Virus record (IMG/VR): IMGVR_UViG_3300044691_000371
Span: 1-64,000 of that record
Reading direction: 5' to 3' (one strand)
DNA from: a virus
Length of the DNA stretch: 64,000 nt
Shown here: positions 4,981-62,220 of the stretch, one piece after another
Numbering within the stretch: the stretch's first letter is position 1
Layout of the letters: every line of letters starts with the position of its first letter
Notes under the pieces: model-generated
Databases searched by the model: none
Seen by the model: only the letters and a program-made list of their open reading frames with translations
What the model was told of the DNA's origin: nothing
Program-made: the position numbers and the translations under genes

Positions 4981-5020
4981 CCTTTATTTTTTTATTGCGT
5001 AAATATAAATAATTAACAAT

Positions 5021-5074
5021 AAAAAAAACAGATAACTAAACCTCGCGTTCTGTTATCTGCTAACCAATTATCTG
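5021..5074 (-). ncRNA. Candidate ~55-nt small RNA (promoter directly followed by terminator, no ORF)
   Basis: Promoter at 5078-5108, then AUCAGAUAAUUGGUUAG, an 8-bp stem CAGAUAAC/GUUAUCUG and U8. Confidence 0.55.
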
Positions 5075-5077
5075 ATG

Positions 5078-5108
5078 TAAAGATAACTATTGTTTTCGTA
5101 TTTGCAAA
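5078..5108 (-). promoter_or_regulatory. Bacteroidota sigma70-type promoter with conserved spacer
   Basis: TTTG-19 nt-TATCTTTA; copy of the repeated AAATAAAGTTTGCAAATAC(A/G)AAAAC element. Confidence 0.75.
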
Positions 5109-5125
5109 CTTTATTTGAAAATAAT

Positions 5126-5449
5126 TTAAAAATATTCTACAGAGGCAGCGAAGTCGAATTGTATGTTTGGTGGATTAGTAACACGATTCCATGAAGCTTG
5201 GCCACCGTCCGCGCCTACCTGTTGCGCCCACCGATTAAGTTGAAAAGCTGCTTGTGCTTCATCTCCACCCTGCACCTGCGAATTAAATCCTATTCCGGCT
5301 GCTGGGTGTAGTATATTCATAGCTCTTGCTTCAAGTAAAATTGTCCCACACTGGGTGCTAATAATACTTTGTGAAGCTGTATTTTCAAAGTCCCCGTTTG
5401 GGGCAAAGATCATATCTCTTTTGATGGGGTCGAAGACTAAAAATGCCAT
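5126..5449 (-). CDS. Putative baseplate gp25/Mu gp46-like protein
   Basis: Size, position after spike gene, D+..(N)GDF and HP..GIG motifs. Confidence 0.55.
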   Translation of the reverse strand: MAFLVFDPIKRDMIFAPNGDFENTASQSIISTQCGTILLEARAMNILHPAAGIGFNSQVQGGDEAQAAFQLNRWAQQVGADGGQASWNRVTNPPNIQFDFAASVEYF

Positions 5450-5457
5450 ATTTTTAT

Positions 5458-6027
5458 TTATTGAGTTATTACCGTTGATTGGATGTCGCTTGCTTTTGTT
5501 ACTGGATTTATCATTCCTGTTTCCTGGCTTACTGTTGCTGCTGCTGTACCTGTACCTGATGATAAAGCAAGTATATGGGTATGGCCGTTATATTGCTGAA
5601 TTAAATTATTAACTAAGTTTTCAAGTGCATTTATTTTTGTTACCAATGGATTGACTAAAACTAAACCGCCATTATTTCCATCGTTAAATTGCGTATTTTT
5701 TGCTGAAATAAAAAGATTGTTAATTGGCTGAATATAATAATCGCTTACTTGGTCGAAGCTGTCTATCTGGGGTAGTCCGCGATGGTTATCCCGCCATTTT
5801 ACAAGGCAATGCGACCCTATTACTGGAATTTCAAAAATAGTCGCTTGTGAGCCTTTTAAAACGCTTGTGGTGACATTTGAATAAGTTACTTCATTGATAG
5901 TTATATCGACCGTAAAATCATTATTAACTGCGGTTACAATTCCATCTATTAATACAGTTGCCCTTAATTTATTTTCTACAAACTTGTTTAATGCTCTTAA
6001 AAAAGAAAATGAAGTCGTACTATCCAT
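5458..6027 (-). CDS. Baseplate spike (gpV-like); start corrected to ATG 6027
   Basis: OB-fold-like N-terminus (IPVIGSHCLV), NDGNNGGLV, and YNGHTH iron-binding HxH motif. The track's longer start runs through a terminator. Confidence 0.75.
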   Translation of the reverse strand: MDSTTSFSFLRALNKFVENKLRATVLIDGIVTAVNNDFTVDITINEVTYSNVTTSVLKGSQATIFEIPVIGSHCLVKWRDNHRGLPQIDSFDQVSDYYIQPINNLFISAKNTQFNDGNNGGLVLVNPLVTKINALENLVNNLIQQYNGHTHILALSSGTGTAAATVSQETGMINPVTKASDIQSTVITQ

Positions 6028-6054
6028 AGTTGTAAAAGTACAAGTTTTTAAAAT

Positions 6055-6082
6055 AAAAAAAGTCCTACATTTCTGTAAGACT
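6055..6082 (-). terminator. Intrinsic terminator after DUF932-like gene
   Basis: AGTCTTACA-GAAA-TGTAGGACT followed by a T run. Confidence 0.75.
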
Positions 6083-6087
6083 AATTT

Positions 6088-6113
6088 ACCCTGAAAACGT
6101 ATCAAGGTGAAAC
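6088..6113 (-). promoter_or_regulatory. 3' UTR hairpin antisense to its own gene's initiation region
   Basis: 6094-6105 is the exact reverse complement of 7054-7065 (12 nt), plus a GAAAC match just after the ATG. Confidence 0.6.
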
Positions 6114-6124
6114 AAGGTTTCTTT

Positions 6125-7051
6125 TTAAACCAATTCCAAAATTGATGAAAGTGCTTTGTTATCTATTCCTAAAGCTGAACCGGTGTACTTACTTTCAATC
6201 CTGGCGTTTTCTTTTTTAGATATTGGCATTTTGTGGGTTGTGTAGTGCGTAACGCCTGAAAACAATCCCCAAAGTGTTTGGCCTTTGCTTTTCATTTCAG
6301 TTGAAATACTGCCTAACAATTCCTGTGAGCGGTTAAGTGCGTAACCTGAATATTTTTCTTTTGCTTCTGCAATTCCCAAATTCATATCAACCCCGGTCAC
6401 TTGGTTTACAATCATTCCGATGTTTGCCTTTTTAACGGATATTTCAGAAAGTGTAATGAACTTTTCAAAAAGGCTTTTTTCCTGTTCGATAATTCCGTTA
6501 ATACTCATTATTGATTGCTCAACTTTAGCGTGGATTGATTGTGTATGACGTGCGCTGTTTTTAAGTTCTTTTTGTGCGTATGCAAATGTGTTACGGCAGC
6601 AAATTGTGAAGTTTACGGCTCCCCATTTTAGTGATGTTGTGCCGTCATGTGAATTAATTCCGGTTACAAACCCTTCAACTGTAGTTCCGTTTTTGCCTAA
6701 ACCTTCTATTGTGTTTCCGGTTTTCAATTGTAAGTAAACTTTACCGCCGTCATTGAACTTGCCGCCTGAATGAAGTTCATAGCCTGTTTTTTCGCAAACT
6801 CTTAAAAGCAGTTCGCCTAATTGATAGTTTTGGAAAGGCTCATAACCGTCTTTACAGGTTGAAAATGTTGTTTGAGTATCATCTCTTACAATGCCGAAAA
6901 ATCCGGTTTCTTTTTGATTAGGTAATAACAAAGGCAGTTTTGATACTTTCCAGTTTAAACCGTAGGTATCTAACATTTCATTGATTAGACTTTCATCACT
7001 AAAGATGTTTGATAAAATTTGATCTGCGAAGTTTGTTTTTGAAGTTTCCAT
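6125..7051 (-). CDS. DUF932 / TIGR03299-like phage-plasmid protein
   Basis: GLNWKV, YEPFQN, G.F..GGKVY, NSHDGTTS, C.NT, TLWGLFSGVTHY..H motifs. Confidence 0.8.
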   Translation of the reverse strand: METSKTNFADQILSNIFSDESLINEMLDTYGLNWKVSKLPLLLPNQKETGFFGIVRDDTQTTFSTCKDGYEPFQNYQLGELLLRVCEKTGYELHSGGKFNDGGKVYLQLKTGNTIEGLGKNGTTVEGFVTGINSHDGTTSLKWGAVNFTICCRNTFAYAQKELKNSARHTQSIHAKVEQSIMSINGIIEQEKSLFEKFITLSEISVKKANIGMIVNQVTGVDMNLGIAEAKEKYSGYALNRSQELLGSISTEMKSKGQTLWGLFSGVTHYTTHKMPISKKENARIESKYTGSALGIDNKALSSILELV

Positions 7052-7091
7052 TTTTGATACGTTTTAAATTTCTTTGTCTGAATTGACGATT

Positions 7092-7122
7092 CAAAGATAT
7101 AAATAGTTTTTACAAATACAAA
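7092..7122 (-). promoter_or_regulatory. Sigma70-type promoter of the DUF932 cassette
   Basis: TTTG-19 nt-TATCTTTG. Confidence 0.8.
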
Positions 7123-7148
7123 CTTTATTTTAAAATAATTTATCAAAC

Positions 7149-7180
7149 AAAAAGCCTTTGATATAATCTCTGGCTTTTTT
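7149..7180. terminator. Probable bidirectional terminator
   Basis: AAAAAGCC-N15-GGCTTTTTT. Confidence 0.55.
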
Positions 7181-7212
7181 GTATTTTTATACCGACGAAA
7201 ATATAAAATACA

Positions 7213-7773
7213 ATGACAAATATAACAGAAAAACCTATCTATGTTAGCCGTGAAGAAAAAAATGGTGTTACACAAGAATTAGTTAAACAGCTTTTTGATT
7301 ATCGAGACGGTTTTTTATACTGGAAAGTATCACGAAGTAATGTTGTAAAAGTTGGCGATAGGTCAAGTTTTATAATGCAAGCATCAAAAAATTCTAAAAT
7401 ATATTATGGTACATCTATTAATAGTGTATTATACAGGTGCGCAAGAATTATATTCTTTTATCATCATGGATACTTTCCAAAATTTGTAGATCATATAAAC
7501 CGTAATACTTTAGATGATCGAATCGAAAATTTGAGAGCTGCTACATATGAAGAAAACATGAGAAACGTTACCCCTAAAAAAAATAAACCATCACAATATT
7601 TAGGCGTTTTTTTAGCAGAAGGTAAATATTGGGTAGCTCAAATACATGTTAATAGAAAAACAATAGGATTAGGATATTTTAAAACTCAAGAATTAGCGGC
7701 TTTAGCTTACAATCGTGCTGCGGTAAAATATTGGGGCGAATTTGCTAATTTGAATATAATACAACCTAAATAA
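7213..7773 (+). CDS. HNH homing endonuclease with C-terminal AP2 domain
   Basis: VDHINRNTLDDRIENLR...EN..N; S.Y.GV...W.A.I...LGYF....AA.AYN.AA....GEFA.LN. Confidence 0.9.
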   Translation: MTNITEKPIYVSREEKNGVTQELVKQLFDYRDGFLYWKVSRSNVVKVGDRSSFIMQASKNSKIYYGTSINSVLYRCARIIFFYHHGYFPKFVDHINRNTLDDRIENLRAATYEENMRNVTPKKNKPSQYLGVFLAEGKYWVAQIHVNRKTIGLGYFKTQELAALAYNRAAVKYWGEFANLNIIQPK

Positions 7774-8925
7774 TTAGGTTTGTACAATTCCACTGCTTTT
7801 AATTGTTTGGCCTTTTAAAAATGAATATTCTGGAACATTAAGCCATGCTACTTGAATTTCACGGTGAAAACCACGTTCCGACAATTCAAAAAATACCCCA
7901 ATAATATAATATTGACCGTTCTTTTCGGGGTAACGACGATCTAAATAATTGACTATGTAAAAAAGATCACATTGGGGATATAAAAGCAATTCTAACTTTC
8001 CATGATAACGATGCTGTTTTGCTTGTAACAAAGCTGCATTCGAAAGAATATCATAAGTATTGCCAACATTATTTACATTATAGAACCAACATTCCTGTTG
8101 TATGCCGGATGAATCTCCGACTTCTACATAGTTTCTCGTTCCATTAGTCGCTTCGAACCAACATTTTAATCTGATTTTTTGAAAAGATGCTAAATTGGTC
8201 TGTAACGAAGATTTTATAACATTCCTGCCAGTATCTAAATTTATTGCGCCGATTGTATTTGAAGCAATATTCACATATAACTGATTGCCAATGAAGCTAA
8301 TATTCAGTCCTAAATTTTTTTTGAAGTATTCGAGAATAGATGCAGGTGACATATTTATGAACGTCAAATTTACCAGCGTCATGTCCAAAGTCGGCAATAC
8401 TAATTCGGCATGTGGCGATGAAGTCCCAAATTTTGCGTTCTGTAAATCTATTTGAGTGTTAGCAAACGCGACTAATTGTTGTAAAAGGTCGGTAAATTGA
8501 ACTGATTTGTAATTAACTCCCGTCCCGCTGTTCTTAATTTTTGTGCCTGCCTTGTTGGTTGTGTGAACCTGTTTATCTCCAAAAATTCCTAAGTTGAAAA
8601 AGTAAATATAATCCAAGCACTTTATTGTTAATGGCATCCCAAGTATGAAATCAAAAACGTAACCTTGAAATATTTGTATTGGTGGATAACCTACGTAATT
8701 AGCTGTTATAGTTATAGGGCTGCCTTGTGGGAAAGTATCGGTTCTTATCGCGGTTAAATATACCTTAGTTGTGTTTGGATCGCTATAGCTGATGTATGAG
8801 TTCAACGGGACAATTATATCAGCCCTTGCACCTATGTTTTGAGCATCGTTAGACGTTTTAACCTCAACTACTGTAGTTAATAGCTGCCCGTTAATAACCA
8901 CTGAAAGCTGAGTGTCGAAATACAT
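7774..8925 (-). CDS. Baseplate hub / late control D-like protein
   Basis: Size and position; G..I.I...Y.GY....F.GYV; C-terminal GQYYI..V......GF.R.I. Confidence 0.7.
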   Translation of the reverse strand: MYFDTQLSVVINGQLLTTVVEVKTSNDAQNIGARADIIVPLNSYISYSDPNTTKVYLTAIRTDTFPQGSPITITANYVGYPPIQIFQGYVFDFILGMPLTIKCLDYIYFFNLGIFGDKQVHTTNKAGTKIKNSGTGVNYKSVQFTDLLQQLVAFANTQIDLQNAKFGTSSPHAELVLPTLDMTLVNLTFINMSPASILEYFKKNLGLNISFIGNQLYVNIASNTIGAINLDTGRNVIKSSLQTNLASFQKIRLKCWFEATNGTRNYVEVGDSSGIQQECWFYNVNNVGNTYDILSNAALLQAKQHRYHGKLELLLYPQCDLFYIVNYLDRRYPEKNGQYYIIGVFFELSERGFHREIQVAWLNVPEYSFLKGQTIKSSGIVQT

Positions 8926-8954
8926 ATTGGCTATAAATATAGCTATTAATCAAT

Positions 8955-8981
8955 AAAAAAAGCCCCTAATAAATTAGAGGC
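8955..8981 (-). terminator. Intrinsic terminator
   Basis: GCCTCTAAT-TT-ATTAGGGGC followed by T7. Confidence 0.75.
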
Positions 8982-8987
8982 CGATTC

Positions 8988-9018
8988 CCGCATTAAACTT
9001 TTGCGAGAAAATATGCAG
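8988..9018 (-). promoter_or_regulatory. 3' UTR hairpin antisense to its own gene's initiation region
   Basis: 8995-9004 is the reverse complement of 10021-10030, and 9008-9012 of 10016-10020; both lie in the loop of stem CTGCAT/ATGCGG. Confidence 0.55.
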
Positions 9019-9024
9019 GTTTTT

Positions 9025-10017
9025 TTAAATATGGCAATCGTAAATGCTCAATAAAGTATCTTCCGGTAATTCATCAATCATTTTATTAAATTCTCCCGAC
9101 CATTCTTTTTGATCTTTTTCGTTTGAAACACAAGCCAACCAACCCATTTCGCCTTTCTCGTACCATTTTCTATCTCTTATAAAAGCAAATGTACTGATTG
9201 TATTATTATAGGCGTTTGTTAAATATTCTTCCCTTGTAATAATAAAATCATCGCAAGAATCAAACATATCAATTATTTTATCTTTTTGAGCTTTTGCCCA
9301 GGCAACTAAACGAGGTTGAGAAAAATAATACGGCCTCGATTTGTCATTGCCGTATCCCATTCTTTCACCGATAGACTTCCACGTTTCATTAACTGGCAAG
9401 TCTTTTAATATTATCATTGCCGTATCGTATTTTTTTGCTGCCTTATCTATGCTTTCATTTCTCATTAAATCAAAATCTATATATTTTTTCAATGATTGAT
9501 CGGCAGTTCCTTTTTTTGCTTCTTTGGTCATTAAGCCTGGTTCACCTCTTTGCCCTAAAACTTCAAGTCCATCTTTAAGTTTAAAAAATCCAGTACAACG
9601 ACCTCCTAATAAATACCAATCCCATTTTGAATTTGGATTTGTCCATGTGCCATATTTGCCCTCTTTTTCATCCCTCGATTTATAACCGCACCATTCTTTC
9701 ATATATTCATCAAAAGTTGAATAAAGTTCTTTTAGTAACATTTCTCTTTGCTCTAAATATTCGGGTACTTTATGAGTATCCGATCCGGTTCCTAAAGTTC
9801 CTTTAATTCTAAATTCATCATCCCATGTATTAAGTATTCTACCATCAGGCATAATTACCTTAGTTGTAGTATCTGTTTCATATTGTGATAAATATTCTTC
9901 TTCATCACTTTCAAAAACCATAAATTCATCAGGACAATCGCCCATGTTATTTTCCTGATAAGGTGCTAATTGTTTTTCTGGGTCATTCCCAATTACTAAT
10001 ACTGTAAAATGTGACAT
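9025..10017 (-). CDS. Acidic phage protein of unknown function; start corrected to ATG 10017 (MSHFTVLVIG)
   Basis: NPNSKWDWYLLGGR, WYEKGEMGW and terminal DCHI motifs; flanked by its own promoter and terminator. Confidence 0.7.
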   Translation of the reverse strand: MSHFTVLVIGNDPEKQLAPYQENNMGDCPDEFMVFESDEEEYLSQYETDTTTKVIMPDGRILNTWDDEFRIKGTLGTGSDTHKVPEYLEQREMLLKELYSTFDEYMKEWCGYKSRDEKEGKYGTWTNPNSKWDWYLLGGRCTGFFKLKDGLEVLGQRGEPGLMTKEAKKGTADQSLKKYIDFDLMRNESIDKAAKKYDTAMIILKDLPVNETWKSIGERMGYGNDKSRPYYFSQPRLVAWAKAQKDKIIDMFDSCDDFIITREEYLTNAYNNTISTFAFIRDRKWYEKGEMGWLACVSNEKDQKEWSGEFNKMIDELPEDTLLSIYDCHI

Positions 10018-10058
10018 TTTGCAAAAGTTTTGATTTGTTAACGACATTGTTAACGCTT

Positions 10059-10090
10059 CAAATGTATAATTATGTTTTTATTTTTGCAAA
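10059..10090 (-). promoter_or_regulatory. Sigma70-type promoter
   Basis: TTTG-20 nt-TACATTTG. Confidence 0.75.
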
Positions 10091-10101
10091 CTTTATTTTA
10101 A

Positions 10102-10761
10102 TTATATTATAATAGTCTGCCCAGGCTGATTTTCCACTACCTTTAGCTTAACAGGAATATTGAGACTTCCTCTTACTGTCGCCGGTTGTATATCCTGAAT
10201 GATTATCGATGATATTTTCAACCCGTTTAAGTAGGTGTTTTGGATGGTTTGAACTGTGTTTACTTCCCAAAGCGTCCACAAGTTATTTAAATTTATTTGC
10301 GGAAAGGGATTATTTATTGCAGGGTTGCCAATTCCTGGCTGTGTCCCGACTGGCCTTATAGTAAAATCAAAGGTTATTTCATACGGCTTTCTACTGATAT
10401 GTTCGAATACTGAAACCCCGTCTATGATATGACTTTCTGCTAAAATCTTTTTCCCATTTAAGGTAATTATCGTGTCTAAAGGTAGTTGAAACCCGTTTAA
10501 GGATTGGATAGTTTGCAATTGAAAACCGTTCGCGCCAGTTCCTTGTGTAGTTATCTGGCCTATAAAAATAAAGGATGGATTATTAGTTAAATCCCTTGGT
10601 ATCGGTACAAAATTAGCCGGTATCTGTGCAGGTGTTTGTCCATTATAGTCTATTGTTGTTGGCACTTGTGGGATAGGTGCAAGCGGTGGTTTCGGTGGTA
10701 TGGTTGTTCCTGCGTATTGTACGGTCGGGTCAACTAATGGTATTCCGTTTATTATTGGCAT
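10102..10761 (-). CDS. Putative tail tube initiator (DUF6046-like)
   Basis: Follows tape measure; K.I....I.G.V.EHIS..PY.I and N.YLN.L.I..I.I patterns. Confidence 0.55.
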   Translation of the reverse strand: MPIINGIPLVDPTVQYAGTTIPPKPPLAPIPQVPTTIDYNGQTPAQIPANFVPIPRDLTNNPSFIFIGQITTQGTGANGFQLQTIQSLNGFQLPLDTIITLNGKKILAESHIIDGVSVFEHISRKPYEITFDFTIRPVGTQPGIGNPAINNPFPQINLNNLWTLWEVNTVQTIQNTYLNGLKISSIIIQDIQPATVRGSLNIPVKLKVVENQPGQTIII

Positions 10762-23640: not shown

Positions 23641-25236
23641 TTATTTCTTCAAACTTTTATAATAGTTAAATCCCCTATTTAAGTAATAAGGAAAATTAAT
23701 CATAGGATGTATCATTTCGGCTGTAGCATTTTCAATATGTTTAGTCGTTAATTTTTTAGGTTCAATTACCGATACATTATGATCTATGCAATGAATTTTA
23801 ACTCTATTGTAATCTTCAATTGCTGTCATTTTCATTATTCCAAAATGACCTTTAAGTAATCCATGCATACTCATACTTTCATTCAATTAAACTTTCTGGT
23901 CTATCAATATCAACGTTAAAATTTGAGTAGTCGTTTCCCTCTGCGTTTGAAATTCTCATTGGCCTTTTTGCTTTCCTCCAAAAGTCGTCACTCCATTCCT
24001 GTAAGATAACTTTTTCTTCATCTGTTATTAGTTCATCATTGTAGACCTTTAGAAGTATGTGGTTTTGTTGTGGTGTCATTTTTAATCGTTGCTATCAAAG
24101 ATATATTTTTCTGCTATCTCTAAAACAGTTCTTACTTTTTTAAGGTCAAATTGAAATCTTGTGGTAAAACGCTATCATCTTCGCCGGTTATTGTAACATA
24201 ATTTATCATTTGTGCTATTTAAAAAGTGAATTAAATTCTTGAATTGTTTTAACTGTTCCATTCATACGCTTAACAATATCACCAGTTAGGCATATTGTGA
24301 GTTTATCGGCATCCTTCTTACTTATTTCAGCGAACATTGCTTCTTTTATAAAGAGATTTACAATGCTATTATTGCCTAAAACTGTTAAATCTGCGTATGC
24401 TTTTTGTAAAATCCAACCTCTGAACTTTGTTCTTATGTCAGATAGGTAAACTGAAAATTCATGATTTTTACCTATTTTAAATTTGAATGTAGGATTTGGT
24501 AAATCTTTTTTAGGGTCAAAATCCATTACTGTTACTTTCATCTTTTTATTCTTTTTGTATATAAATATCCATTAAACTCTTTCCAATTCTTAAACAAGCT
24601 ACTTTTGAAAAAGTAGATGTATTTTTCACTGAAAATTATACGGTATTTATTCATCTCTTAAACAGCTTGCATAACCTCTATTCGAACACATTGCCTCAAT
24701 AATATCATCCCTCAACCGTGCTTGATATTTTTCGGCTGTTTCGCCCTCACGTTGCTTTAAATCTTCGTTTCTTTCACTTGAAACAACGTGACTATTGAAC
24801 AATTGCAAGACGTAATTTGCACCAATCATGAAGCAATCGTGATCGCTCAATACTTTTCTTTCGTCGTATTGGTGCTTTTCATAAAAATCTCCTATCTGAT
24901 TTTCAGCATTTAGATAGGCGTTCTTTAGGAATTTTTGATTAGTTGTCATTACGCGGCGATTTTAGATTTAATAAAAGTCATTTGATTTTTTGTGAACTTA
25001 TCGCCGAAAAGAAATTGTGCAAGTCCGTTTATACCGTGTTCTTTGCAAAACTTAATAGTATCTAAAACCCTACGTGTTACGGTAGCGGCTTCGCCCTCTA
25101 CATGAAAGGATACGAAGTCAGGGTCATTATCAATGATGTCATAAAGTGCTTGTGTATCGAAGTTGTTATCTATGATAACGTTTTCAGTATAGTTTTTGTA
25201 AGTGATAACTCCGATTTGTGATACTTGATTTTTCAT
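23641..25236 (-). CDS. Cassette of small hypothetical ORFs behind the 25273-25303 promoter (first start ATG 25236)
   Basis: ORFs 24949, 24647, 24215, 23879, 23641 are closely packed. The track's start at 25302 lies inside the promoter. Confidence 0.6.
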
Positions 25237-25272
25237 TTTTTGATACGTTTTAGCTTGTCTTAATTGACATAT

Positions 25273-26309: not shown

Positions 26310-27158
26310 TTAATCTATATTAAAAATATCTCCATTCGCTTCATTTGCACTCGATAAAGCCTGAAAATAGCTATGCCCTTGACGTGGTAAAATTCCCTGA
26401 TTTGCACTATTAAACCTGAATTGAGGGTCTACATGCTCTAATGATACTTTTGCTTCTTCGTTTGTTAAAACAGATTTCCCATTGTCTTCAAGGTACTGAT
26501 CGTCCACTTGTTCGCTTCCGCAATCGCAATTAAATCCATTTTTTGGGTGACAATCGTCCCCTTCTGGATCTCCTATTCGATAGATATTACCAACCAATTC
26601 AAGGTGTTCGATTCTCGGATTTGCTGAATTTGTTTCTAAATATATCCAATAAGGGTATAACTCTTTATTTTCACGATATGATATAAATTGTTGACCTGTT
26701 ATTGCTAATCCTATAGCCGTATCGTATTCTATACGAAGCCATGTTTCTTGAAATATATTTACTACTTCTTTACAATCTCTTTTATATTGGCTAAACCCCT
26801 TACGAACGCCGTCTTCATTGAACAACAATTCTTTCATCATTTTATTTTCAGCAACGCTCTTACTCGCTGAAAATTGGGTTGAGTTCAATAAATAACGCTC
26901 ATATAATGAGGTATCACGAAATAAGTCGAAATCTGATTTGATTTTAGTTTCGTCTTTCAGAATATCGAAAAAGGTATTTGCATATTCTTTGAAAGTAGGC
27001 AGGTATATCCCTGTGCCTCCATCAAATACGAATTTGGCTTCGTCATCTGATTTTTCTGAAAGCCTGTCAATTGTATGATCTATTTTGGCCTTTTGTTTCT
27101 TGGTCGGTTTCCTCGGTTTAGAATCAAGGTTGACGTATTCACTACCTAAAAAAATCAG
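26310..27158 (-). CDS. MuF / SPP1 gp7-like head morphogenesis protein, probably reached by frameshift from portal
   Basis: WLRIEYDTA, YPYWIY, R.EH..L.G, P.NGFNCDC, F.FN motifs. The frame stays open 90 codons upstream of the TTG at 26888 with no ATG. Confidence 0.8.
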   Translation of the reverse strand: MIFLGSEYVNLDSKPRKPTKKQKAKIDHTIDRLSEKSDDEAKFVFDGGTGIYLPTFKEYANTFFDILKDETKIKSDFDLFRDTSLYERYLLNSTQFSASKSVAENKMMKELLFNEDGVRKGFSQYKRDCKEVVNIFQETWLRIEYDTAIGLAITGQQFISYRENKELYPYWIYLETNSANPRIEHLELVGNIYRIGDPEGDDCHPKNGFNCDCGSEQVDDQYLEDNGKSVLTNEEAKVSLEHVDPQFRFNSANQGILPRQGHSYFQALSSANEANGDIFNID

Positions 27159-28588
27159 TTTTTTTTTAAAGCCATCTGAAAAGTAGCATCCGGCTTTACC
27201 AATTTATCCTGCGTTGGTTGTGGCATTGGCTCAAAGAAATCGGGCATCATTCCGTTCTGCTCAAAAAACCCTGGAGTTAACCTGTAACCGTTAGCGTTAA
27301 GGGTCGCCCCCATTACTTGAATGTCAGCTATGGTTAACTGTTTTGGCCTGTAAGCAAACCACCATTTATCTGGATTAGGAATGTTTTTATAGAACTTTGC
27401 TATTTTTATTTTAAAGCCTTTTATGTTGTTTAAAGTCGCTAATATGTAAGGCATTAATTCGGCAACCCTATCATCCAGTGTACGTTCTTCGACCTCTCCT
27501 AAAGCTCTATTACCACCTTTACCGCTTGATTGAGTTAATGAACGACCGAAAACCATTTCCTGAATTTCGCCCTTTTGTTCTTGATTAAACTCTTGATAAA
27601 TTTTATGTAAACTTCCTGTCGCGCCTGTCTTTTCAAATTCTAATTCGATTGACTTTTGCATTTGCCCATCATTATCTAAAGTATATGGGTAAACTAATCC
27701 CTCTTTTGGATTAAGGTTTGAAGCTAATGCAACTGCATCATTTTTGTAATTATTCTTTGGTTGACCGTTTGCATCTAAACTTCCGTCATCTTGTGGGTAA
27801 CCGATTGTAAGGAATGGGAACGCTGTTCTCCGGCCTGCTGCAATCCAGTTGTTATTATTTTCGTTCATTTCCACATAGCTATAGGCTATAGCTTGCATCC
27901 ACCCTAAAAAGTCTTCGTAATTATCAGATGGTTGAACGAATAAAAGATTGTCGTTTTCTTCAAACAATGCCCCGTCATAAAAACTGAATGTATTGGCTTT
28001 TAACATCCTATTTATCGGGTCAATCTGCTGCATTGGGTATTTGTAGCATTCTTCATTCACTGGGTCAAAGTTCAAACCGCTGAATCCCCAGAAGTACGAA
28101 TAAAGAATTTCGCGCCTCATTTTTATTTGCCACTGCTTGCTGCAAAGTTCTTCTGAAAGGTCTGGTATTTCTTCTCCGTTTTCATCAACAATGTAGAATG
28201 GTACCCTGTCCATGGCTGCACCAAGCTTTAGAAACAACGATCTTACAAATGGTGACTTCTCATATACCCAACTTGTTAAAGTCGCGTATAATTGAGTATA
28301 ACCCATTTTAACGGCTTGGTCAGATGCTTCTCTCACGCGGGTTGTATCCCAAGCCACATAATATTGACTTGGGTAGACCCATGACCCTACATTTTGACCG
28401 CTTTGTTTTGGAATAAAGAAAGGGTTTACTATTGGCGAACCGCTTGCTGTTCGTGTTCCAGGCTGTACAGTACCAAAGCCACCCCCACCGGGTGCTTTAC
28501 CTGTTACACCAACGCCTGTAGTATTTCCAAATGGCCCGCTGAATGGCCCCTGATTTGCTAATTTTGATGGTCTTCCCCTCTTTGCCAT
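27155..28588 (-). CDS. Portal protein (Mu gp29/DUF935-like)
   Basis: Position between TerL/gp36-like and MuF; YFWGFS, LGW....A, G..LT..G..G.RALGEV.ER. Confidence 0.8.
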   Translation of the reverse strand: MAKRGRPSKLANQGPFSGPFGNTTGVGVTGKAPGGGGFGTVQPGTRTASGSPIVNPFFIPKQSGQNVGSWVYPSQYYVAWDTTRVREASDQAVKMGYTQLYATLTSWVYEKSPFVRSLFLKLGAAMDRVPFYIVDENGEEIPDLSEELCSKQWQIKMRREILYSYFWGFSGLNFDPVNEECYKYPMQQIDPINRMLKANTFSFYDGALFEENDNLLFVQPSDNYEDFLGWMQAIAYSYVEMNENNNNWIAAGRRTAFPFLTIGYPQDDGSLDANGQPKNNYKNDAVALASNLNPKEGLVYPYTLDNDGQMQKSIELEFEKTGATGSLHKIYQEFNQEQKGEIQEMVFGRSLTQSSGKGGNRALGEVEERTLDDRVAELMPYILATLNNIKGFKIKIAKFYKNIPNPDKWWFAYRPKQLTIADIQVMGATLNANGYRLTPGFFEQNGMMPDFFEPMPQPTQDKLVKPDATFQMALKKN

Positions 28589-42932: not shown

Positions 42933-43656
42933 GATACTAAATTAAAGTTTTTATATTAAATAGCAAATATTTGTTTTGATACGTTTTTTAATCACTTCAA
43001 AACAACTTCTTATTGTTATTGAATTTATACCTTCAAAAATTATCGTTCGTTATATCGCTTTAAAATGCGTTAAATAGTGAAAGGCATTTAAACGCTATGT
43101 AAATACCTAAAATTATAAATGTTAGTACTGAGGCTTTTGATTTTCGTTCGTAAACAACTTCAAATATCCCATCTAAATAAGCAAATGCAAAAAACATTAA
43201 AATCAATTTTAATATTTCAATTTCTATTCTCATTTTCTTGTCTTTGAGCTATCCCTAATCTGATTAAAAGACCATCAGCGTAATCAACTGCACAATTTAT
43301 GTCATCTTCCATCGGCCTTTCTGATTTTCCGTTTGCAATTAACGTATTTAAAAACTGTGTTGACAAATTCAATCTCATTTGCGCGATGTTTGCCTGTAAT
43401 TGCTGATTGATTTGATCTTGTGTTGGCTTTGCTTGTGTTGGCCGTCTGTCTGCAAACTGGCTTGCATTAGGTAATTTATTACTCATATTGTTGTTTTATT
43501 TGATTTCTTCCCAAATTGTTAAATCATCTTCTGATGTTGGCTTTGGATTAGCTATTAACTTAAATTTTGTTTTACACCTCTTACACCAAGCTTTTGTAGG
43601 TAATGAAGTTGCATTAAACCTCAAATCATGTGTGAATAGTCTACAAATTATATTTT

Positions 43657-47976: not shown

Positions 47977-48556
47977 ATAGTTAATAAGCTACCAACTATA
48001 ATAGTTGAGGCCGCACATGTGTAGGGATGTTCCATATCGTTAATAATTATGCGTTATCTGCTTATAAATCGCAATTACTACCAGGGTTATAGCCGCCAGT
48101 ATTAAAAAGTATTTTGGCTTCATTATTTTAATAGATCAATTCCAAAAATCATTTTATCTGGTACATGAAACATTTCTTTCCAGCTTAAAACAACGTCCTT
48201 TTTGTCAGTTTTCTCCTCAATTATCCAGGCAGGTATCCAACTTTTAAAATAAAGCTTTGCGCTTATTCCTGTTGATGTTACCTTGATAACGATCTTTTGC
48301 TGTGGTGTTTTCACTTTTAATATTTATCAAAGTGGATAACTCCGAAATGAGCCATAGTAATTAGTGTAATAATAATTATTATCATGCCAATGATAAATAC
48401 CCTTATTTGGGTCTTGTTGTCTGCGTTTTGTAATTTGTTAATTGTTTTCATGATGTAATATTTTAAAATTGTTGTTTGCTTTTAGAAATAGTACGCTGCA
48501 CTTGCTTTTTATTGCCGGACTTCCGCGTACTATCTTTTATTCTTTGTTTTACGAAT

Positions 48557-48587
48557 CAAATGTATAAATAGTTTTCGTAATTGCAAA
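48557..48587 (-). promoter_or_regulatory. Sigma70-type promoter
   Basis: TTTG-19 nt-TACATTTG. Confidence 0.75.
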
Positions 48588-49654
48588 CTTTATTTTAAAA
48601 TATTATGATTTTTTATTTCCAGATGGAATAATGTTTCGTTTTCACTGAAATTTTGAAGTTTTTTATTTTCACCTGAAAATAGAAAATGATAGGTATTACT
48701 GAATTTAAAGGGGTCTTCCCAATCAAGTTTTAACTTGCTATCAATATATTCGTTGCTCAAAATCCTAACTCCTTTTCATCGATAAATTCAGTGATGATAT
48801 ATCCTTTGTCTGAATCGTTAGCTATAATTAAGTTATTAGAATAGCCTTTTTTTTCGATATTTATTAAGTCTTGCTCCTGAATATCTTCAACGTTTAATTT
48901 AGGTTCTTCCATAATTAATTAAATATAAAAACTTCTTTATTCTGCTGCTTAAACTCTCTTTCGCGTATTCCTGATGCTAATTTTAAATAAACCTGCTTAT
49001 TATCTATTGTCGATGTAAAATATATTTCCTAGGCAATATCTTCAATCTCAAAACATTTTTCAATTGGCTTAGTAGGTTTGTGTTTAATCCTTTTGCCGTC
49101 TTGATATTGGATTAGTCTATTTCTGTGATCTTTCATAGCTTATTTGTGTGCTTCAATAAATTGGTCAAGTTTAAACTTTTTAGGATTCCAAAGTACGTTT
49201 TTATAAATGTACATGCAATCATTTAATGCAGTTGTCATGCAATATGATAAGTCTAAAACCGGCTTTTGTCTCTTTACGCTTTCTTCCCAATTTAGACATG
49301 CTACAAGTTTTTCACCTTTGTATTCTACCCAATTCATTGAAGGGCAATCATCTGGTAACCAATGTGGCGGTTTCCAATTTTCAAAGTTAAGATCAAAATT
49401 TTCTATCTCTTTATTTGTCATCTTGAGGGTGTTTATTTAAACCTGCTGCTTCCATTGCTCTATAAAGTTCAATTATTGCTTTTCTAACACGTTCATGTTT
49501 ATTTGTATTTCCTCCGCTCATAGCAAATCTACAGGCAAGTTTTTTAAACTTTGGTTGACTTTCCATAAGGATAATATACGGATCGCTATTACCGCCCCAT
49601 TCCATCCAAAAATGACAATCAGTTATATCGCAATCATCTGTTAGTAATGCCATT

Positions 49655-56149: not shown

Positions 56150-56331
56150 AAAATAAGCATCCGTTCTGATCGCCGTCCCGGATGCTCAACCTAAACCTAT
56201 CACAATGACCGAATAGAACTTCGATCTACTGCTAAAAGCCAAATCCTTTTGAGAGTTTGGCTTGCGTAGACGGGTTTACGCATTTTTTCCGGTATTAGCA
56301 GACCGTGAACTATCTCACGGAACACGGTGGG
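56150..56331 (-). ncRNA. GC-rich structured 3' UTR / ncRNA
   Basis: Hairpin CCGUGA/UCACGG; three-way junction CUGCUAA/UUAGCAG enclosing UGCGUA/UACGCA and AGCCAAA/UUUGGCU; final hairpin AGCAUCCG/CGGAUGCU. Confidence 0.55.
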
Positions 56332-56550
56332 TTAATTTACTACCGTAGCATCTTCAAAATGAAGTATGCCAGCAATCCAAATTTTAGCGGGTGTTTTAAG
56401 AATGTCGGAATTATCAGCAAAAATAACTTTATAGCCTTTTTCGTAGCCTAATTCATCGGTTTTAATTACCTGTATGTTTTGACCTATATAAAGGTTAGAC
56501 CAGGCATGAACATTTTTGCTTCTTTTGATTGTTACTGTTAGAGTGTTCAT
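56332..56550 (-). CDS. Small hypothetical protein, first gene after the 56591-56621 promoter
   Basis: A-rich leader and AAAATG start. Confidence 0.65.
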   Translation of the reverse strand: MNTLTVTIKRSKNVHAWSNLYIGQNIQVIKTDELGYEKGYKVIFADNSDILKTPAKIWIAGILHFEDATVVN

Positions 56551-56590
56551 TTTGAGATAGTTTAAAATTACTTTGTCGATATTGACAGAA

Positions 56591-56621
56591 CAAATATAAC
56601 TATTGTTTTTGTATTTGCAAA
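56591..56621 (-). promoter_or_regulatory. Sigma70-type promoter
   Basis: TTTG-19 nt-TATATTTG. Confidence 0.8.
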
Positions 56622-56655
56622 CTTTATTTTACTTTTTTGAAATTATTTTTTAAAA

Positions 56656-60277: not shown

Positions 60278-60328
60278 AGTGTGATTAATTTGGTCAATGT
60301 AACAATATATAAAGCCGACAAAACCGGG

Positions 60329-60499
60329 TTAGTCTAATAAAATTAAAACGCCGCCCATTATTTCAACTGTATTTACTTTTTTTGATTTAACAAGATCGTT
60401 TACACGTTGTCGAATTAAATTATTTCTACGGGCATATTCAGCCTGAGTAATAAGTTTTGTTCTATCGACTTTTAAAGGAGGTAATTGTGAATTTTCCAT
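60329..60499 (-). CDS. Small HTH-like DNA-binding protein (56 aa, below the ORF-track cutoff)
   Basis: Manual translation MENSQLPPLKVDRTKLITQAEYARRNNLIRQRVNDLVKSKKVNTVEIMGGVLILLD. Confidence 0.55.
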   Translation of the reverse strand: MENSQLPPLKVDRTKLITQAEYARRNNLIRQRVNDLVKSKKVNTVEIMGGVLILLD

Positions 60500-60650
60500 T
60501 GCTTCAAATATATGTTACATTGTCCGAATAAACAATATTTTATTTCATAAAATTTCGATTATTCTTTTTAATTCTTTTCACAACTGGTTTCGAGCAGTCA
60601 ATTTTTATTATTTGGAATGTTGTTTGGTTGCAGTAACTCATTTTTTTTGT

Positions 60651-61295
60651 TTAATCTAAATGAAGTGTTTTAATGAACTGATTTAATATTCTATTTCCGC
60701 TTTCATCTAAATGCGGATGCAATGCTCTACTTAATTCAAATATTCTGTTTTGTAAATTTGTAGTTTTGAAATAGTATTTACTAAGCAATGTTGAGGTTTT
60801 ATCGTTTTTTAATTTATGTAAAAAAGGTGCTTTTTTTGTTTCAATTACTTCGTTCCCATCAATATAAAGTAAACCGGCGTAAAATGGCATTTCATCTATT
60901 TTTAATAGATCTTTGGGGCAAGCGTAGTAAAATTTATTGGGTAAACATTTGCAAATATTCTTAAAATAAATAGACGAACTATCCCCTAATCCAAAATTAT
61001 ATGTTTCAGGATTGTAAATCCCACCATTGCGAATATAGGGCCTAAATGGATATTTTTCTAAAATGTATTCTTTTTTGTGATTTGTAAATAAATGATGTTT
61101 ATCTGTTTTTTTAAAATCAGCTAAAAAATCAGAACGACTTATTTTAACCTCAACTTCTACAGCATAATTACTCGTGGAAACGGCAAAAAAATCACATTCC
61201 CAATTATACATGTAAGCATTAAATAACTTATAGTCGTAATTATGAAAGTGCCGCCTTACTGCCTTTAATATGTCAATACTTTTAATTTCTGACAT
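60651..61295 (-). CDS. PD-(D/E)xK nuclease, MmcB-like
   Basis: ECD....EVEVKISRSDFLADFKK; PNKFYYACP; YAGL. Confidence 0.7.
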   Translation of the reverse strand: MSEIKSIDILKAVRRHFHNYDYKLFNAYMYNWECDFFAVSTSNYAVEVEVKISRSDFLADFKKTDKHHLFTNHKKEYILEKYPFRPYIRNGGIYNPETYNFGLGDSSSIYFKNICKCLPNKFYYACPKDLLKIDEMPFYAGLLYIDGNEVIETKKAPFLHKLKNDKTSTLLSKYYFKTTNLQNRIFELSRALHPHLDESGNRILNQFIKTLHLD

Positions 61296-62220
61296 ATTAT
61301 TGAGTTACTTTTTGCTTGCTGTAAAGTTTAGTTAATAGTTCGTCTGCCCATTGAAGTGCTAAATCAGTTCCTTCGCTGCTGTTGTGTAGATTACCTGTAG
61401 GTGCGTTCTGAATTAATCCTTGCATTGCTAACCCGGCTAAATAAAGCCTGTCTTTGTGCCTTTGATCTTCTTTTTCAAAAAGGTTTGTTTCTTTCAAAGG
61501 CATTTTAAACCCATTAGGCGAACGATCTTGTTTGACAGCCTTCAGGTATTCAAGTATTTCGTTCTGCTGTTCTAAAGCCTTAGTGAAGCCATCTAAAGGT
61601 AAGTTTGGTTGCACTGTCTTTTTGCTTCGCTCTAAGATGTAATTCAACACTGTCAATATTAAGTTTTTATCGACCTGGAATGAAAGCCAATGCCACTTTT
61701 TATCTGTTTCAAGGTCAATTATTTTTAGATCGATTAATGCTTTTTTGATATACTTATTGATCTGAAATTCTTTTATCAGTTCATCGATTGTTAGTTCGCA
61801 TCCGTCCGAATTTGTAATAAGTGACTTTAAAAAGTCCTCGTATTTGTCAAGTACTTTCAGCAAAGGTTTTTTCTCGCGTGTCATGTGTGTGATTATTTTA
61901 AATTATTTTATTCGCTTTAATGGCCTTATAGTTTCCTTTATTTGACCTGCTTTTTTCAATATCAAATAATCACTGCAAACTATCATTCCATTTATCTTGT
62001 AGATATTATTTGATCTGCAAATTAGGCAAACTTCTTTTAGTTGAGTAAATAAATGATTGGTCATCGATTCCATTATTCAGCCTCTCTTTTACAATAATGA
62101 CATATTTGATATTCAAAATCTATTTCATCGTATTCTCTACCACAATGAGGGCAAAATTGGTATCCTTCTTCGTCAAAGTCATCAAAGGATGGGTCTTCTG
62201 GTTGATTATTTTTCATAATT

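Follow-up and report, generated by a model that had tools for sequence, protein, structure and literature searches.

Single-gene messages of a phage with a Bacteroidota-type host carry 3′ tails complementary to their own start regions: a candidate translational fold-back

The window analyzed here is the first 64 kb (64,000 nucleotides, nt) of the 84,826-base-pair (bp) single-contig virus record IMGVR_UViG_3300044691_000371, a phage with a Bacteroidota-type host, and nearly all genes in the window lie on the minus strand. Near its beginning, a gene for a DUF932 protein forms a cassette of its own (case 1), in which a conserved promoter is followed by a 5′-terminal hairpin, a leader, the gene, a 3′ untranslated region (UTR) of ~70 nt, and an intrinsic terminator (Table 1). 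The leader harbors a 12-mer that is followed by AA, the ATG at 7051, and GAAAC, and the tail of the message, beyond the stop codon at 6127..6125, carries the complements of both GAAAC and the 12-mer. An earlier note on this DNA had reported this 12 + 5 nt complementarity around the AUG, and its coordinates and sequence were confirmed. When the leader is folded alone, only the 5′ hairpin forms and the start region is open. Folding of the 3′ UTR alone reproduces a local hairpin also described in that note, and the terminator directly behind it was found by terminator scanning as well. The loop of this hairpin displays 7 nt of the anti-leader, and the hairpin is an alternative to the long-range helix. 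An Rfam search of positions 5000-10500 returned no family.

Two genes unrelated to DUF932 had been said to share this architecture with different sequences, and both cassettes are present as described: one encodes a phrog_10079 protein (case 2) and the other a small protein (case 3). The complementarity amounts to 12 + 5 nt in case 1, 10 + 5 nt in case 2, and 10 + 6 nt in case 3. The geometry is shared, with the leader segment starting at −14, −13, and −12 and the anti-leader starting 20, 21, and 15 nt past the stop codon, respectively. In cases 1 and 2 a promoter lies upstream and a terminator downstream of both segments, these ends being predicted from motifs. Each of the 10-mers of cases 2 and 3 has exactly two copies in the 84.8-kb genome, one in the start region and the other, in inverted orientation, in the 3′ UTR of the same gene, and in both cases the gene's own start region ranks first among 140 partners.

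The earlier note had argued that such recurrence is not due to chance, and a genome-wide scan bears this out. The scan covered 140 open reading frames (ORFs), 41 of which have a 3′ spacer of at least 45 nt; positions −18 to +10 of each start were compared with the first 45 nt past the stop codon, self pairs were set against all non-self pairs, and starts were randomly reassigned to 3′ UTRs in 20,000 trials. Exact complements of at least 10 nt are found in three self pairs, namely cases 1, 2, and 3, versus 0.24 expected from the non-self pairs. At a threshold of at least 9 nt the numbers are four versus 0.83, and at duplex energies of −14 kcal/mol or below they are four versus 0.37. Random reassignment reaches three self pairs in 0.18% of the trials (permutation p = 0.0018), and the direct-repeat and reverse-only controls of the same scan yield no self matches. 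The match between the tail of a gene and its own start is non-random.

Transcripts were folded from the inferred start to the terminator (1035 nt in case 1, 361 nt in case 3). In both, the long-range helix is part of the minimum-energy fold, with pair probabilities of 0.73–1.0 in case 1 (7054-7065 with 6094-6105, over 950 nt) and 0.71–0.99 in case 3 (over 245 nt), and the helix has a probability of ~1.0 in both. In these two cases the helices are predicted to enclose an internal loop that contains the AUG (in case 1 the unpaired AAAUG at 7049-7053), and the two helices of case 2 are split by a 3-nt bulge. Adding the cognate 3′ UTR lowers the mean unpaired probability of positions −14 to −3 from 0.74 to 0.05 in case 1, from 0.51 to 0.30 in case 2, and from 0.44 to 0.18 in case 3. 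A swapped or shuffled 3′ UTR leaves it at 0.41–0.77; the predicted closure of the start is specific to the cognate 3′ UTR. To this extent the self-pairing proposed in the earlier note is supported as a prediction, but in case 1 the gene's own leader is one of several possible targets. A search of sequencing runs listed no RNA run with the sequence; two DNA runs that match in part yielded only 151-nt pieces of coding sequence, none of them on the UTRs.

The start regions involved belong to a genome in which a Shine-Dalgarno-like motif precedes 6 of the 140 ORFs. Upstream adenines are enriched at −14 to −10 and at −3 across the same ORFs, and helix 1 covers the stretch in which the genome concentrates them. 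In Flavobacterium johnsoniae, mRNA structure and upstream nucleotides, including A-3, tune initiation (PMC6847099). Promoters in this genome follow the Bacteroidota pattern, with TTTG and TAnnTTTG, and a pattern scan of the whole genome finds eight near-identical copies of the conserved promoter. Two of these precede short non-coding units and three precede single genes; the remaining three stand at the head of operons whose first genes are at 25236, 68211, and 72942. Among the eight, the three single-gene protein cassettes are precisely those with a self-complementary 3′ UTR. For the operon leaders, no comparable partner lies within 4 kb, and the 9-nt matches 3′ of these leaders are at chance level.

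Table 1. Features of the three cassettes and further copies of the case 1 leader 12-mer (window positions unless noted; aa, amino acids)
Feature	Position	Strand	Basis or remark
Case 1, conserved Bacteroidota-type promoter, TAAAGTTTG-spacer-TATCTTTG	7092..7127	−	Pattern scan
Case 1, 5′-terminal leader hairpin GUC-AAUUCA-GAC	7076..7087	−	Leader folded alone
Case 1, helix 1, 5′ strand: leader 12-mer AAAACGUAUCAA (DNA AAAACGTATCAA), −14..−3	7054..7065	−	
Case 1, helix 2, 5′ strand: GAAAC, codons 2-3, +3..+7	7044..7048	−	Duplex and full-length folds
Case 1, DUF932 coding sequence, 308 aa	6125..7051	−	Pfam PF06067, E 1.5e-23; phrog_1221; same-length homologues
Case 1, helix 2, 3′ strand: GUUUC (then ACC), 3′-UTR nt 12-16	6109..6113	−	
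Case 1, helix 1, 3′ strand (anti-leader): UUGAUACGUUUU (DNA TTGATACGTTTT), 3′-UTR nt 20-31	6094..6105	−	
Case 1, local 3′-UTR hairpin ACCUUGA-UACGUUU-UCAGGGU	6088..6108	−	3′ UTR folded alone
Case 1, intrinsic terminator, 9-bp stem, GAAA loop, T-run	6054..6082 (hairpin 6082..6061)	−	Terminator scan, fold
Case 2, cassette	8961..10095	−	
Case 2, promoter	10059-10095	−	Followed by a 5′ hairpin with AAUGUC loop
Case 2, leader 10-mer AAACTTTTGC, −13..−4	10021-10030	−	Partner GCAAAAGTTT
Case 2, coding sequence, 330 aa	9025-10017	−	phrog_10079
Case 2, 3′-UTR hairpin	8987-9019	−	Anti-leader 8995-9004; AUUUU 9008-9012
Case 2, terminator	8961-8982	−	
Case 3, cassette	56308..56626	−	
Case 3, promoter	56591-56626	−	
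Case 3, leader 10-mer AACTATCTCA, −12..−3	56553-56562	−	
Case 3, GAACAC	56543-56548	−	
Case 3, coding sequence, 72 aa	56332-56550	−	Without family assignment
Case 3, 3′ side GTGTTC-CG-TGAGATAGTT	56308-56317 (anti-leader), 56320-56325 (GUGUUC)	−	
12-mer copy in paralogous operon leader (first gene 24949-25236)	25240..25251	−	Possible trans target
Fourth same-sense 12-mer copy	42976..42987	−	Upstream of a degenerate promoter copy, outside any start region
12-mer copy beyond the window	68213-68224 (genome)		Leader of a 54-aa gene at 68211

Relatives of the case 2 protein were located at ~100 loci in IMG/VR and prokaryote genomes; with a single exception, these loci are internal to operons and lack a 3′ UTR. 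The exception, L093, comes from a complete 75-kb IMG/VR phage; its protein is ~49% identical to that of case 2, and its cassette has the same kind of layout: a −7 box, a 5′ hairpin with an AAUGAA loop, the leader, a 3′ hairpin, and a terminator. In the leader, AAUGUUGC occupies −13 to −6, and the loop of the 3′ hairpin bears GCAACAUU. In comparison to the window, both partners differ in two helix-1 pairs (U-A to G-C and C-G to A-U) and in one pair of the hairpin stem. These compensatory changes lend moderate support to the pairing having been kept. Of the covariation in related phages to which the earlier note had looked, one orthologue shows compensatory changes, with weak predicted 5′–3′ pairing, and the DUF932 loci compared contribute none. 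A search of IMG/VR with the L093 protein gave no further single-gene-cassette orthologue. The promoter and leader patterns had no matches in IMG/VR, the case 3 protein had no relative there, and no close relative was found among GenBank phages.

The closest DUF932 homologues are 70–95% identical (P0002-P0011), and the DUF932 loci that were compared, from scans of IMG/VR and JGI metagenomes, are at most 68% identical, the value of the best match. One clade of these distant loci, from lake metagenomes (L001-L004 and L012-L021), has TGTGTG directly after the stop codon and ACACAC in the leader and first codons; shared ancestry or low complexity could account just as well for this complementarity of 6–7 nt.

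The explanation that fits best, and which is held with moderate confidence, is a fold-back between the 5′ and 3′ UTRs of the kind known from icaR, here occluding a start without a Shine-Dalgarno sequence and limiting the translation of the message that carries it. Each cassette, with its promoter, 5′ hairpin, open A-rich leader, gene, 3′-UTR hairpin, and terminator, would give rise to a short single-gene mRNA. Once the 3′ UTR has been made, the anti-leader would pair with the start region of the same molecule, forming a helix 1 of 10–12 bp over −14 to −3 and a helix 2 of 5–6 bp at or just past the AUG, with a loop or bulge between them. In a host of this type, initiation proceeds without Shine-Dalgarno pairing and relies on an unstructured, adenine-rich upstream region; therefore, a long-range helix over the start region should block binding of the 30S subunit. 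Translation of the finished mRNA would be low, and its duplex might be cleaved, whereas the nascent transcript would be open, such that translation is largely confined to the time before the 3′ UTR exists. The outcome would be a self-limited output per transcript that needs no protein factor.

The structural core of this fold-back is supported by three lines: the excess of self pairs, the full-length predicted folds, and the one compensated orthologue. The transcript ends, the translational repression, and the role in timing are inferred. The pulse timer, the translation of nascent mRNA only, and the feedback by a small RNA (sRNA) that the earlier note put forward are likewise suppositions about what the pairing might do. 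A wider proposal is tentative and rather doubtful: that every single-gene cassette behind the conserved promoter silences itself after a brief co-transcriptional burst by a gene-specific, anti-leader-mediated cyclization, and that the DUF932 tail cross-represses two leader-sharing operons, which would amount to an RNA-only regulon in a host without Shine-Dalgarno recognition or classical sRNA chaperones.

Several observations weigh against the fold-back. The sample is small, three genes and one orthologue. The 5′–3′ pair probability is 0.25 in case 2 and 0.12 in the L093 orthologue, because strong local 3′ hairpins compete, and the L093 phage has no genome-wide excess of self pairs. The distant DUF932 loci (53–68% identity) show neither self-complementarity nor an excess; they use other promoters and are uninformative rather than negative. 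Two paralogous leaders equal or surpass the gene's own leader as a partner in case 1. The predictions themselves are equilibrium folds, which ignore ribosomes and folding kinetics, of transcripts whose 5′ and 3′ ends are taken from motifs.

Within single bacterial mRNAs, the 5′ UTR is known to pair with the 3′ UTR in icaR, hbs, and RNAIII (PMC3868564, PMC7821165). The earlier note did not know the arrangement as a described one; these precedents show that its principle is not new, but a literature search found no phage or Bacteroidota example. What is unusual here is the phage setting, the target without a Shine-Dalgarno sequence, and the repetition of one geometry in several cassettes. In icaR from Staphylococcus aureus, the sequence UCCCCUG in a 3′ UTR of more than 300 nt pairs with the Shine-Dalgarno sequence of the same mRNA, and its function has been shown (PMC3868564). 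The phage cassettes share with icaR a single-gene mRNA (predicted here), a short 3′-UTR sequence complementary to the initiation region of that mRNA, a predicted block of initiation, and a possible duplex substrate for cleavage. In contrast to icaR, the target is the A-rich stretch from −14 to −3 together with the first codons, the 3′ UTR is ~70 nt long, the helix has two parts around the AUG, and the arrangement, known here from sequence and prediction, recurs in three cassettes.

The fold-back also has parallels in which the finished message is closed. In type I toxin mRNAs of the hok type, the full-length mRNA is kept silent by the folding of its 3′ end onto its 5′ end, trimming of the 3′ end activates it, and there is a cognate antisense RNA. 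The likeness lies in a completed transcript that is closed by 5′–3′ pairing, with translation restricted, as is predicted for the phage messages. However, Hok is a small membrane toxin, and the phage products of 308, 330, and 72 aa bear no toxin signature; none of the three products (DUF932, phrog_10079, and the 72-aa protein) is a small hydrophobic toxin frame. No opposite-strand promoter of the Bacteroidota type was noticed by eye near the leader, no dedicated antisense search having been made; a promoter scan that covers the sigma-70 type only gives several plus-strand matches there. The maturation gene of MS2 is translated only on nascent RNA, until long-distance pairing closes its start. 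There, too, the start of a phage message is open only until a distant complement folds onto it, but in MS2 that complement is part of the 5′ UTR of a genomic RNA and precedes the start, whereas here it would lie in the 3′ UTR of a DNA-phage mRNA.

Instances of UTR–UTR pairing within a single bacterial mRNA amount to a handful, each found singly. Three unrelated phage genes with one geometry and gene-tailored sequences suggest a design principle open to reuse, not a one-off curiosity. If true, the fold-back would be a protein-free means by which a phage caps the output of early genes. The system offers a clean test of mRNA structure in initiation on Bacteroidia-type ribosomes, which ignore the Shine-Dalgarno sequence, and the elements, which are short (~20 nt) and modular, could, if functional, be used as self-limiting expression parts.

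It is possible, but rather unlikely, that the complementarity has no function and reflects chance or the decaying remnants of inverted duplications of a mobile promoter–leader module. Such a module is repeated and mobile in this genome, with eight copies of the promoter and the 12-mer in four same-sense copies, and the plus-strand reading of the case 1 element resembles the leader of the gene at 68211 at 18 of 20 positions. The small sample, the weak predicted pairing in case 2 and its orthologue, and the lack of enrichment in the L093 phage and at the distant DUF932 loci also agree with this view. Against it stand the outcome of the permutations, a single geometry in three unrelated genes with three sequences, and the compensatory changes in the orthologue. 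In addition, helix 2 matches the first codons of each gene, which a copied leader would not supply. An origin by inverted duplication was rejected, as a local alignment of the whole leader with the inverted 3′ UTR confines the similarity to the paired core.

An unlikely alternative to the fold-back is action in trans, in which the 3′ hairpin with its terminator, or the whole mRNA, serves as an sRNA whose loop seed pairs with the start regions of other molecules, namely molecules of its own mRNA, as a negative feedback, and, for DUF932, the two operons with first genes at 25236 and 68211. The anti-leader is partly exposed in a hairpin loop with a terminator immediately behind it, as is typical of 3′-UTR-derived sRNAs. 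The 12-mer copy in the leader at 25240-25251, pointed out in the earlier note, is present, and further copies were found at 42976-42987 and 68213-68224; the 12-mer is common to three paralogous leaders (7054, 25240, and 68213), with the additional same-sense copy at 42976. The start region at 68211 matches the DUF932 3′ UTR over 13 nt, followed by a single mismatch at the A of the AUG and by 5 further matching nt, giving a duplex energy of −25.3 kcal/mol versus −18.3 kcal/mol for the 12 + 5 nt of the DUF932 start itself. The DUF932 tail could therefore act on further mRNAs, or it may have arisen as an inverted copy of a leader of this kind. With two paralogous leaders that are equal or better partners, case 1 is as compatible with trans action or shared ancestry as with pairing in cis. 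Cases 2 and 3, however, have no other target in the genome, the GAAAC helix of case 1 also fits the start of the DUF932 coding sequence, intramolecular pairing is kinetically favored over intermolecular pairing, and there is no evidence of a processed fragment. Self-targeting sRNAs derived from 3′ ends are known in Vibrio cholerae, where OppZ and CarZ (Hoyos et al. 2020, summarized in PMC7821165) are processed, act in trans on internal cistrons of their operons, and trigger Rho termination. Both systems have a 3′-end element complementary to a start in the transcript from which it derives, which in the phage would likewise give a gene-specific feedback; in contrast, the phage target is the sole cistron, and processing is known for OppZ and CarZ but not for the phage RNAs. 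A seed of the OppZ type is found insofar as the case 1 element matches three leaders and the elements of cases 2 and 3 match only their own.

A role of the 5′–3′ helix in RNA stability or processing, whether as a stalk that shields both ends from ribonucleases, as a double-strand cleavage site through which the cassette mRNA is trimmed or destroyed, or by bringing stop and start close together for re-initiation, is improbable. The evidence for pairing serves this role as it serves the fold-back, the AUG itself is unpaired in cases 1 and 3, and both the protection of hbs from RNase Y (PMC7821165) and the cleavage of the icaR duplex by RNase III (PMC3868564) are documented. Nevertheless, the helix sits on the determinants of initiation (−14 to −3 and the first codons) and away from the extreme 5′ end, which has a hairpin of its own, just as the 3′ end has a terminator; moreover, a classical double-strand ribonuclease site would be longer than 12 + 5 bp. 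In hbs from Bacillus subtilis, a 14-nt helix between the two UTRs shields a 5′ site from RNase Y and stabilizes the mRNA (Braun et al. 2017, summarized in PMC7821165). The helices are similar in length (14 nt versus 10–12 nt) and join both UTRs of one short mRNA, whereas the phage helix lies on the start region itself and the hbs helix guards a 5′ cleavage site.

A DNA-level element, in which the flanking inverted repeats act as looping operators or as recombination sites for inversion of the gene, is highly improbable, for although the genes are flanked by inverted repeats and one such repeat, that of the gene at 60329-60499, has an arm in an untranscribed promoter spacer, the three differing sequences would require three proteins, the arms are parts of the transcribed region (leader and coding sequence), the repeat is interrupted at the start codon every time, G-U pairs, which make sense only in RNA, occur in the hairpin stems, and arms of 10–12 bp that are ~1 kb apart cannot extrude. 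An invertible segment was rejected, as the repeat pairs differ between genes and the promoters lie outside the repeats.

The gene at 60329..60499 on the minus strand was rejected as a further member of the fold-back group, as the leader-side arm of its repeat lies in the promoter spacer. It encodes 56 aa, which we take to be a small putative DNA-binding protein, and is flanked (window 60290-60530) by an imperfect inverted repeat of ~17 nt with a perfect 10-nt core, CAATGTAACA, whose upstream arm is located just before the TATATTTG box. The arrangement suggests two operators acting at the DNA level and not an RNA element. The gene at 27155-28588 was also rejected; its duplex energy is low, but the pairs are only scattered.

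A possible fourth case is the minus-strand gene at 60651..61295, which has the 9-mer AGTAACTCA at −14 to −6 (window 60632-60640 and 61301-61309). The 9-mer has only two copies in the genome, the second being inverted at nt 11-19 of the 3′ UTR of the same gene, and the duplex energy is −12.1 kcal/mol. This gene directly follows another gene and is not located behind the conserved promoter. Case 3 has a second 10-nt complement of its start, TTCATTTTGA, at window positions 56354-56363; this one covers the AUG and belongs to the coding sequence of the 72-aa protein, close to its 3′ end. Together with the 3′-UTR element it would cover the whole start region, and it may be a chance match in A/T-rich sequence.

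Beyond the window, two more copies of the conserved promoter (genome 68047-68283 and 72631-73001) each head an operon. The first 13 nt of the 103-aa gene at 72942, ATGGAAACTTCAA, are the same as the start of the DUF932 gene, in a comparison limited to these 13 nt. Within the window, two copies on the minus strand (5000-5113 and 48480-48592) lead into short, structured non-coding units with no gene, and the unit at 5078 ends after ~55 nt in a hairpin and T-run. Adjoining the DUF932 cassette at 7213-7773, and alone on the plus strand, is a gene for an HNH endonuclease with an AP2-like domain. It resembles a homing endonuclease, and a second stretch resembling it is present elsewhere on the contig of the source assembly.

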